Source of the DNA: a virus
UHGV virus genome: UHGV-1483955
DNA length: 64,000 bases
Direction: 5' to 3' (one strand)
In this document: positions 9,494 to 12,176 of the stretch, piece after piece
How the letters are laid out: each line of letters starts with the position of its first letter
Numbering within the stretch: position 1 is the stretch's first letter
Program-made: the position numbers and the translations under genes
The notes under the pieces: model-generated
Seen by the model: only the letters and a program-made list of their open reading frames with translations
Told to the model about the DNA's origin: nothing
Databases searched by the model: none

Positions 9494-10101
<608 letters not shown>

Positions 10102-10214
10102 TAGTCATTTGTTCATTGAGTAGGAATATTGTTGTCTGGGGGGTAATCAGTGTAGGTGGAATGAGGGATATGATATGGTTATCACATAATCAGGTTGTTT
10201 TGAGTAAAACAATA

Positions 10215-10240
10215 AAACGCCCTTTAATGGGCGTTTTTTT
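10215..10240 (-). terminator. rho-independent terminator (bidirectional-looking)
   Basis: AAACGCCCTTTAATGGGCGTTTTTTT: GC stem with T/A runs on both sides, just downstream of the stop at 10270. Confidence 0.5.
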
Positions 10241-10269
10241 AAAACTTAAATTGACTATCCTTTCAAATA

Positions 10270-11082
10270 CTATTTTAATTCTATGTAATTTTTAAATTCT
10301 CCCTCATATTTATACATGATGCTATCAAATCCTTCCATTACATCAACGAATTGTTGTGAACATTCCGGCTTCCAAGGCGTACACTTACGAACCATATCCA
10401 TTTTTTTCTTATCCTTCGTTGTATCGACTAAGGATAGGTACCCTATAAAATTCATCATCTGAACAGGATCTTGATTTGTGAATATATATTTGACGTTTTG
10501 CTTAGTAGGCGAAAAAGAATCAAAAGCAGGGAACATATATTCACCAGAAAAAGAGAGTGCAGCATCAATGACGTCTGTTGCAGGAGTGCAGTTGCTCAGA
10601 ATTGGCACTAAGCTAAAATTAGCACCTGAGCACACTGCATATATATCATCCCCTTTTTTTAGTTTTAACAGAGAGTCTTGCTTTGAATCCAATATTTTCA
10701 ATTTGATATAATTTAGTGGCGTTGCATTTTCCCCTGGAGTAAATAACTCTACAATTGGTTTATTATTCACCATTCTTATGGATTTTATTTCACCATACAC
10801 AATTGGAATTGTGTTCCATTTTTCCTGAGCAGCAAATTCATTATCTTTAAAATCATTAACCAACTCAGATGGCAAATGATAACCAAATTGATTGTTCATT
10901 GCTTTCGAAGCAAATCCAGACAAATAGAATGCCCTTACTAAATCATAATCTTTCTTTGAGGTAGAAAGCCAATCTGGCAATTTATTATCAGCTATCGCGC
11001 TTCCAGCAAAAATAGCACAACAAAATGTTATTACATTAAATAATTTCATTTTCCATTCACTCATTAATCGGTTTAAACTCAC
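10270..11082 (-). CDS. secreted protein with N-terminal signal peptide (possible Sim-like superinfection-exclusion protein)
   Basis: 270-aa ORF, hydrophobic leader MKLFNVITFCCAIFAGSAIA; strongly AT-rich relative to flanks. Confidence 0.45.
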   Translation of the reverse strand: MSLNRLMSEWKMKLFNVITFCCAIFAGSAIADNKLPDWLSTSKKDYDLVRAFYLSGFASKAMNNQFGYHLPSELVNDFKDNEFAAQEKWNTIPIVYGEIKSIRMVNNKPIVELFTPGENATPLNYIKLKILDSKQDSLLKLKKGDDIYAVCSGANFSLVPILSNCTPATDVIDAALSFSGEYMFPAFDSFSPTKQNVKYIFTNQDPVQMMNFIGYLSLVDTTKDKKKMDMVRKCTPWKPECSQQFVDVMEGFDSIMYKYEGEFKNYIELK

Positions 11083-11392
11083 TAATTAATTCACCAAGAC
11101 TATTTGGGTATGCTTTATAAATAACATACTCCGAAGAGCCATCTGAATATTGGTAAGCCCCATAACAGATCAGTTTATTTATTCCTTTCTGAATAGTTTT
11201 TTGATTATAAGAATCAACCACTGTTATTCCATATGACGATAATATTTCGTTATATTCTTCAATAAGAGCTTTTCTTGTTTCCACTGAATTACAATCTACC
11301 TTCGAAAAGTCAACTTCATCAGCAAAAACATTAAATGTTAAAAAGGAAAGCACTAAAAACAAACGAATCAGCATAAATCCACTCCTACGCAT
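11057..11392 (-). CDS. small secreted protein (111 aa)
   Basis: Signal-peptide-like N-terminus (LIRLFLVLSFLTFNVFA); AT-rich; overlaps next gene start. Confidence 0.4.
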   Translation of the reverse strand: MRRSGFMLIRLFLVLSFLTFNVFADEVDFSKVDCNSVETRKALIEEYNEILSSYGITVVDSYNQKTIQKGINKLICYGAYQYSDGSSEYVIYKAYPNSLGELISEFKPINE

Positions 11393-11395
11393 GGA

Positions 11396-11527
11396 TTAAT
11401 AGTCATTGATCGCAAAGGCGTAAACTTGCCAAAGGTATTTCGTATAATCGGTACAAATCTCCTTTACGCTTGATGCTGCATTAACAGTCCCAGCCATAAA
11501 TAATAACGATAGTAATAGTTTTCTCAT
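11396..11527 (-). CDS. 43-aa signal-peptide-like small ORF
   Basis: MRKLLLSLLFMAGTVNAASSVKEICTDYTKYLWQVYAFAINDY, ATG at 11527 preceded by AGGTGAGG; not in the ORF track (below length cut-off). Confidence 0.3.
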   Translation of the reverse strand: MRKLLLSLLFMAGTVNAASSVKEICTDYTKYLWQVYAFAINDY

Positions 11528-11622
11528 TATAACCTCACCTGCCTTATAACCCATTTAGGGTACATATTTTCGCCTTTAAAAAAAAGAGGTTATTAGATCC
11601 AATTGTGTATTTATTAAGCAGA

Positions 11623-11639
11623 TAATGCTCTAATAAATT
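11623..11639. promoter_or_regulatory. C1 operator-like site
   Basis: AATGCTCTAATAAATTT, one mismatch from the P1 C1 operator consensus ATTGCTCTAATAAATTT. Confidence 0.6.
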
Positions 11640-11779
11640 TGTATTTTTAAGTCACGAATGCTATCTTTTCGCATCATATTGACCTTTTAATCGTTCAGGC
11701 TTATAGTTCCGCCGTCGTAGCAAATTCTGCGACCGGGTTTAGCAGCCTGAATGATTGTGCGGACAGCCGCAGATATCCG

Positions 11780-11940
11780 ATATTGCGGTATTTTTGTGTC
11801 CGTAAAACCGCGTTACGCCCAAATTATGGTGGGGCGTGATGGGGAGGCTTCGGCCTGCTGGTTTCACAATCGCCAGTCTGCTAACCCCGTCACGTCCTGC
11901 CACCTGTTTAGCAGCGGGTAGCAGGTTGTTAAACCTGATT
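11780..11940 (+). ncRNA. candidate c4-type antisense RNA region upstream of icd
   Basis: Non-coding stretch between the operator and icd with complementary segments (CTGCTAA ... TTAGCAG); exact RNA ends cannot be set from sequence alone. Confidence 0.3.
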
Positions 11941-11954
11941 GTGAGGCCGTAACT

Positions 11955-12176
11955 ATGGTTAATGCCAATCCTTGCGCACGCCCAGAATTCATCTGGCGTT
12001 TCTATTCCTGTAAAAAACACCACTATCACTTCGTTATCGCAGCAACTGAAGACGAAGCACGCTCTCAATTGCCTGATGGCCCCTGCATTTTTACTGCCCG
12101 TTTTTCAACTAACTCGCGCAATTCACTTAGTTACTGGAGCCTCCCCTTCTCTGCCGACGTTCAGGGGGGTTTATGA
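11955..12176 (+). CDS. icd: Icd-like small protein (73 aa)
   Basis: 73-aa ORF whose TGA overlaps the ant1 ATG (ATGA), matching the P1 icd-ant arrangement. Confidence 0.5.
   Translation: MVNANPCARPEFIWRFYSCKKHHYHFVIAATEDEARSQLPDGPCIFTARFSTNSRNSLSYWSLPFSADVQGGL

Follow-up and report, generated by a model that had tools for sequence, protein, structure and literature searches.

The P1-type sim superimmunity locus of a P1-like phage-plasmid: a predicted periplasmic OB-fold protein, a probable gene remnant and a site of alternative exported-protein cassettes

The phage envelope proteins T4 Imm, T4 Sp and TP-J34 Ltp follow a common logic, in which adsorption is allowed, delivery of the incoming genome is stopped, and the range of excluded phages is narrow. 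Imm resides in the inner membrane, Sp is anchored to a membrane and Ltp belongs to the lipoproteins. The sim locus of phage P1, studied between 1982 and 1990, reportedly behaves in a comparable manner: superinfecting P1 is said to adsorb normally while its DNA is not established, and transfection is said to bypass the block. The exclusion phenotype was reportedly seen with multicopy clones, so the strength of exclusion at prophage copy number is uncertain. In the P1 literature, sim is described as a superinfection-exclusion determinant whose product was purified as a processed protein, and Devlin et al. 1982, on superimmunity, is among the original studies cited for it; processing of Sim is named in the title of Maillou & Dreiseikelmann 1990, as listed in PMC2409434. 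Plaque formation does not depend on simA, simB or simC in a genome-wide CRISPRi screen (PMC10695390), which is what an exclusion function would predict. The sim genes also constitute one of eight variable regions in P1-like phage-plasmids (PMC9603915).

In the window, meaning the whole 64,000-nucleotide stretch of viral DNA analysed here, three consecutive minus-strand ORFs (listed at 10270..11082, 11057..11392 and 11396..11554) reproduce this locus. Positions 10100-11750, compared with a phage collection by megablast, align gap-free over 1651 nt with positions 46616-48266 of phage P1 (NC_005856) at 98.5% identity; a further match of this query is GenBank entry M34382 of 1990, 'sim region ORF 1/ORF 2'. 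The P1 annotation designates simC 'superimmunity' and both simB and simA 'putative superimmunity accessory function'. The products differ little from those of P1: SimC is identical at 263 of 264 residues (sole change N220K), SimB at 109 of 111, with two changes, and SimA at 48 of 52 (S2G, P16S, G42W and H43Q). The whole window is 97.6-98.4% identical to P1-family genomes across 25 kb, and the E. coli plasmids NZ_CP138405.1 and NZ_MN232192.1 share with it, at 100% identity, the 2.7 kb that surround sim. As in P1, sim is flanked on the left by pmgC, tub, pmgB and sit and their late promoter LPsit; on the right, the C1 operator Oc4 precedes the c4 RNA, icd, ant1/2 and kilA, and sim is transcribed away from immI. 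Gene order, flanks (LPsit/pmgC on one side, Oc4/c4 on the other) and terminator are those of P1 sim (NC_005856 46786-48070, M34382); the start codons preferred here, in contrast, give shorter genes than the P1 GenBank annotation.

The simA-simB-simC operon is very probably (about 0.9) the known P1 'superimmunity' or superinfection-exclusion locus in a P1-like phage-plasmid. An initial annotation of this DNA, made from the letters alone, had placed the module between the tail operon and the immunity region and had suggested that it might be the counterpart of the P1 sim locus near immI. The position agrees, and the identity and shared flanks make it the same locus; the two smaller ORFs, which that annotation could not assign, are simB and simA of P1. 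Judged by sequence, the copy is a near-identical allele, from another P1-like plasmid, of a locus already known, and the finding mainly confirms the window as a P1-like phage-plasmid with a standard sim locus. From this identity we infer that the present copy excludes superinfecting P1 after adsorption. The additions to the known locus are the corrected starts, the OB fold of SimC, the simB-simC unit, the simA remnant and a map of the cassettes that occupy the site (coordinates in Table 1).

Table 1. Positions of the sim genes, their control signals and neighbouring elements in the window.
Feature	Position	Strand	Description
LPsit	10092..10110	-	Late promoter of the tail operon pmgC-tub-pmgB-sit; left edge of the cassette; from P1 annotation (L001 2993-3011)
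sim cassette	10113..11625	-	AT-rich variable island; homology to P7/Ro157c2YLVW ends at its edges; lowest GC
Intrinsic terminator	10214..10237	-	Closes the sim operon; AAAACGCCCATTAAAGGGCGTTTT then ATTGTTTT; 9 pairs, 5 GC
simC	10270..11049	-	259 aa, predicted exported; signal peptide 1-20, helices, OB fold ~83-156, C-terminal helical domain
SimC signal peptide	10990..11049	-	Scored by hand; K2, core VITFCCAIFA, AIA/D; predicted cut before DNK
simB	11057..11374	-	105 aa, predicted exported, signal peptide 1-18, two conserved Cys; annotated as 111 aa from 11392
simA	11396..11527	-	43 aa (annotated as 52 aa from 11554); signal peptide plus ~26 residues; most likely 5' remnant of a 215-aa gene
PsimA	11592..11618	-	Predicted sigma-70 promoter, weak hexamers; transferred gap-free from P1 feature L001 4493-4519
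Oc4 (Op51)	11624..11640	+	C1 repressor operator; right edge of the cassette and start of immI; AATGCTCTAATAAATTT, 1 mismatch to consensus; P1 annotation
a1b1	11701-11753		Target of C4 RNA; Rfam
C4 antisense RNA	11822-11907		Rfam RF01695, 69.6 bits

The sim block is set off by its composition, with a GC content of 0.30-0.38 inside versus 0.47-0.52 in the flanks. At 0.331, the segment 10113-11625 has the lowest GC content of any 1.5-kb stretch in the window (median 0.482), in agreement with the markedly AT-rich island described in the initial annotation. The module also ends at its own terminator, as had been proposed: the strong, GC-rich hairpin AAAACGCCC-ATTAAA-GGGCGTTTT and its T-run (10237..10214, minus strand) lie 33 nt after the simC stop. 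At the opposite end, the operon would be transcribed leftwards from a weak predicted promoter beside Oc4. This promoter, PsimA, is not recovered by a consensus promoter scan of the sequence, and PsimB, located inside simA, is a prediction carried over from the P1 record. C1 operator-like sites number 8 in the window versus 0.01 expected. A 109-aa ORF at 11739-12068 (minus strand) was set aside; it overlaps the c4 region and the beginning of icd in antisense orientation, with no sign that it is a gene.

Of the lengths first given for the three ORFs (270, 111 and 43 aa), the last stands, with an ATG at 11527 preceded by AGGTGAGG, rated good, while the first two are likely 259 and 105 aa. For simC, the mechanical ORF begins at a GTG at 11082 (270 aa) and the P1 annotation at an ATG at 11064 (264 aa). 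The GTG start is probably wrong and the ATG at 11049 is favoured, since PGAP-annotated plasmids carry a 780-nt gene, a 777-member protein cluster consists of 259-aa proteins, and the homologue P0005, 39% identical, begins at the equivalent MK. The start of simB lies most likely at 11374, since AGGAG is found 8 nt upstream, the PGAP-annotated plasmids call a gene of 318 nt, and the phrog_14329 profile, 105 positions long, aligns to residues 7-111 of the longer form. The gap between the simB stop and the simC ATG at 11049 is 7 nt, which suggests coupled translation, and simB and simC would thus be expressed as a tightly linked pair.

Signal peptides were scored by hand for the n-region, the hydrophobic core (Kyte-Doolittle) and the cleavage site. 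In SimA, SimB and SimC alike, 1-2 basic residues precede a hydrophobic core of 10 residues (mean Kyte-Doolittle 2.4-2.7), a cleavage site of the AXA type follows, and the secretion-signal-like leaders noted earlier on all three are accordingly recovered. The predicted cut follows MKLFNVITFCCAIFAGSAIA in SimC (AIA/DNK), MLIRLFLVLSFLTFNVFA in SimB (VFA/DEV) and MRKLLLSLLFMAGTVNA in SimA (VNA/ASS). A lipobox, [LVI][ASTVI][GAS]C, is absent at the leader ends of SimC (AIA/D), SimB (VFA/D) and SimA (VNA/A), and the Cys in the SimC leader (TFCC) lie outside a lipobox context. SimC contains no further transmembrane segment beyond its signal peptide and is predicted to be a soluble periplasmic protein, unlike Imm, Sp and Ltp, to which it also has no detectable sequence or fold relationship.

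By sequence, SimC is nearly an orphan. Among 1.84 billion cluster representatives scanned exhaustively with HMMER, no more than 15 proteins reach E <= 1e-3; three relatives are full-length, namely P0002 (84% identity), P0005 (39%) and P0014 (29%), and the other matches are fragments or small OB-only proteins. Word-index protein searches with SimC and SimB retrieve near-identical E. coli proteins only and are silent on function, a sequence-profile search of the PDB gives no significant match, and NCBIfam gives nothing for SimC or SimA. In Pfam, residues 67-159 of SimC match PF12869 (tRNA_anti-like) with 19 bits and E 1.1e-3, below the gathering threshold of 23.5, which is passed by the relatives P0012 (53.8), P0015 (43.7) and P0014 (25.9).

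Structure prediction, which the initial annotation had suggested for the 270-aa product, yields an AlphaFold2 model of moderate confidence with an OB-fold core (8-sequence alignment, mean pLDDT 71.8, pTM 0.49, barrel 77-85). In this model the signal peptide is followed by helices at 32-78, a five-stranded barrel at 83-156 and a helical C-terminal domain at 158-257. The barrel is a five-stranded OB fold that superposes on a solved member of the PF12869 family, and the best structural match is 3f1z from Klebsiella, deposited as a 'putative nucleic acid-binding lipoprotein'. SimC differs from PF12869 proteins such as 3f1z by its sub-threshold score and the lack of a lipobox, and it has a further helical segment at its N-terminus as well as a helical C-terminal domain (~100 aa) in which a C-x6-C is conserved. 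The mature protein contains four Cys, one pair in the barrel (VCSG...NCT) and the other in the C-terminal domain (CTPWKPEC). All four are conserved in P0002, P0005 and the homologue from NZ_CP027575; P0014 has four Cys at corresponding places, with the second of the barrel pair offset by one alignment column. This pattern fits two periplasmic disulfides. Mature SimC (~239 aa) would accordingly fold in the periplasm, probably held by these two disulfides, with a helical segment at its N-terminus, then a divergent tRNA_anti-like OB fold, and helices again in the C-terminal domain.

The structural matches that follow 3f1z are the nucleic-acid-binding OB folds of tRNA synthetases, RPA and MCM. Together with the deposited description of 3f1z, they give some ground for a reading in which SimC, located in the periplasm, uses its OB fold to bind DNA as it arrives, or a DNA-protein complex, and thereby keeps it from crossing the inner membrane. 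This is the least probable of the readings considered and is very unlikely: 3f1z and PF12869 owe their 'nucleic acid-binding' label to prediction from the fold, ejected phage DNA is thought to be shielded within a tube or channel, and specificity for P1-type phages is not easily explained by it. A precedent for a periplasmic block to DNA entry exists in the bacterial HXS system, but P1 escapes HXS, so the precedent is not directly transferable (PMC13128918). In the model, the OB fold of SimC is compatible with a protein, nucleic acid or sugar ligand.

Within P1-like elements, purifying selection acts on both simB and simC (pN/pS ~0.2); comparisons of SimC among P1-like plasmids and with the copy of 83% identity in a metagenomic contig (L004) give values of 0.05 to 0.38. 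Taken with the leader and the fold, this selection indicates that SimC is a maintained, exported OB-fold protein, whose fold does not reveal the class of its ligand. SimC is found by tblastn in 141 plasmid records, and SimB at >=90% identity is also found in 141. In the metagenomic contig simB and simC are paired with no simA upstream. The two genes thus travel as a unit. In NZ_CP027575 (L005), a SimC relative of 35% identity follows a 212-aa gene and occurs without simB, so SimB may not be required; in the mechanism proposed here it would be a co-inherited accessory protein.

In that mechanism, SimB and SimC would be exported by Sec and cut after AXA, and SimC would intercept infection between tail attachment and passage of the DNA through the inner membrane. 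SimC would most likely bind a phage part exposed in the periplasm, such as the tail-tube tip or the Sit tape-measure/transglycosylase. The specific version of this explanation holds that SimC seizes the P1 penetration device in the manner of T4 Sp or TP-J34 Ltp, whereby local murein digestion or channel formation is stopped and the DNA is never delivered. The predicted soluble, periplasmic state of SimC, with neither lipobox nor additional membrane segment, is consistent with this, and the exclusion, said to be limited to P1 and P7, fits a phage-specific target. The sim genes also lie directly upstream of the pmgC-tub-pmgB-sit tail operon, although this adjacency to sit is perhaps an accident of the swap site described below. 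Foldseek against viral models finds the same type of OB fold in phage lipoproteins, one of them a 'Host cell surface-exposed lipoprotein', which serves as a lead only. Against these points stands the lack of similarity in sequence or fold to T4 Sp, T4 Imm and Ltp, Pfam having given tRNA_anti-like only. Binding of the penetration device by SimC is tentatively placed first among the readings, at somewhat less than even odds.

A second reading directs SimC, together with SimB, against a component of the host envelope required by P1 once it has adsorbed, for example a factor in the inner membrane or the periplasm, resembling the manner in which DicB or T4 Imm alter the entry route. Kliem & Dreiseikelmann are said to have found in 1989 that Sim-expressing cells still adsorb P1, as such a block would allow, and other prophage proteins reportedly stop entry by altering inner-membrane receptor proteins, judging from the title of one study (PMC6832061), which would provide a precedent. 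To our knowledge, however, no host factor for P1 DNA passage has been described, and mature SimC has no membrane anchor. An action on the host envelope is accordingly considered unlikely, and ranks after interception of the penetration device.

In the third position is the reading that the cassette, at its natural copy number, is mainly not directed against P1. The block would then be an acquired 'moron' with another envelope role, such as defence against unrelated phages or a contribution to host fitness, and the laboratory exclusion would be a by-product of overexpression. Its foreign composition, the reported use of multicopy clones to define the phenotype, and its presence in only 134 of 628 plasmids that match the flanks (21%) as one of several interchangeable cassettes, all for exported proteins, are in line with this reading. 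The purifying selection on simB and simC speaks against it, as does their distribution, which is essentially confined to P1-like elements: the HMMER matches of SimC are few, and its plasmid records number 141, of which 138 are non-mobilizable, mostly ~90-130 kb in size. Such a restricted distribution fits a phage-specific role, and a function mainly unrelated to P1 is judged quite unlikely, though ranked above the binding of incoming DNA.

There is current interest in periplasmic blocks that keep phage DNA out, and the additions made here could help to reopen the question of how Sim blocks the entry of P1 DNA. An extracytoplasmic OB core in SimC, a simB-simC unit and a simA remnant would turn an old phenotype into a structure-guided question.

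The origin of simA is indicated by other P1-like plasmids, in which an exported-protein gene of 215 aa is intact. SimA matches positions 1-41 of the 213-position phrog_3933 with E 1e-20. At the same site, Ro157c2YLVW (L003) has this gene in intact form, and its first ~48 codons, together with the region upstream, match simA at 95-97% identity. In a three-way DNA alignment, simA is collinear with the 215-aa gene down to '...GAATCCATGCG', near position 11388 of the window; a TAA is found in P1-type simA where the intact gene has GAA, and the similarity ends just past this TAA, at the AGGAG that serves simB. In PLSDB, the full-length 215-aa protein is present in 84 plasmids, and ~150 match residues 1-48 only, these being the sim-bearing plasmids. 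The differences in simA among five sim alleles comprise 5 nonsynonymous and 1 synonymous change (pN/pS 0.8-1.4), with no sign of purifying selection in this set; compared with the 14:19 of simB/simC, the ratio gives a Fisher p of 0.09, which is not significant with so few sites. Most likely, simA is a stub left when the simB-simC module replaced the body of the 215-aa gene, and it supplies upstream sequence but probably does not act as a working component.

The variable interval lies between LPsit and Oc4, and the sequences on both sides of it are conserved in all P1-like phages. Homology of the P1, P7 (L002) and Ro157c2 types stops at 10112, just past LPsit, whose region is kept in P7 and Ro157c2 up to this position. 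For P7 it resumes at 11626, in the first bases of Oc4, and for Ro157c2 at 11388. The site is filled in at least five ways: simA'-simB-simC in P1 and the present window; a 215-aa gene with a 158-aa (YfjT-like) gene in Ro157c2YLVW; a 212-aa gene with a SimC-like gene in NZ_CP027575; a 107-aa membrane protein followed by simB, simC, the 215-aa and the 158-aa genes in the metagenomic contig; and a lipoprotein with a DUF5384 protein in P7. All products of the five arrangements carry a signal peptide, a lipobox or membrane helices. By these comparisons the LPsit-Oc4 stretch is a swap site for alternative exported-protein cassettes. Variability of the sim region has been published (PMC9603915) and is not new; the modular picture is more detailed here.

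The P7 cassette (upf50.5/upf50.0) and the Ro157c2YLVW cassette (gp35/gp34) share with sim the insertion site, orientation and size class, and their products all carry signal peptides or a lipobox, as the sim products carry signal peptides. Apart from the segment that the Ro157c2 215-aa gene has in common with simA, the proteins of the P7 cassette (DUF5384 and a glycine-rich lipoprotein) and of the Ro157c2 cassette (215-aa and YfjT-like) are unrelated to those of sim, and no exclusion phenotype has been reported for either. A search of PADLOC-DB at E <= 0.01 gives no match for SimA, SimB, SimC or the P7 and Ro157c2 cassette proteins.

A broader proposal is that the site is dedicated to the shuffling of modules (a 215-aa 'SimA-family', SimB, SimC and YfjT-like), that simA is the fossil of a swap, and that SimC represents a small unrecognised class of periplasmic OB-fold exclusion proteins which seize the penetration apparatus or the DNA. 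Taken as a whole this is rather doubtful; if true, the other cassettes at the LPsit-Oc4 site would be exclusion systems too. The interchangeable cassettes offer cheap candidates for further exclusion functions, and P1 transduction, like the dissemination of P1-like resistance plasmids, could be influenced by them.

SimB gives a structure prediction too poor to use (pLDDT 48.9). Its profile matches to Pfam TcpS (E 0.068, residues 11-46, covering the signal peptide and adjacent residues) and to NCBIfam eut_hyp (18 bits versus a cut-off of 152.6) were discarded as noise. A SimB-like domain, 52% identical and with both Cys kept, forms the N-terminal part of the 298-aa exported orf79 of phage D6, which lies at a genomic location different from the sim site; distant SimB copies of this kind occur in sixty more plasmids.

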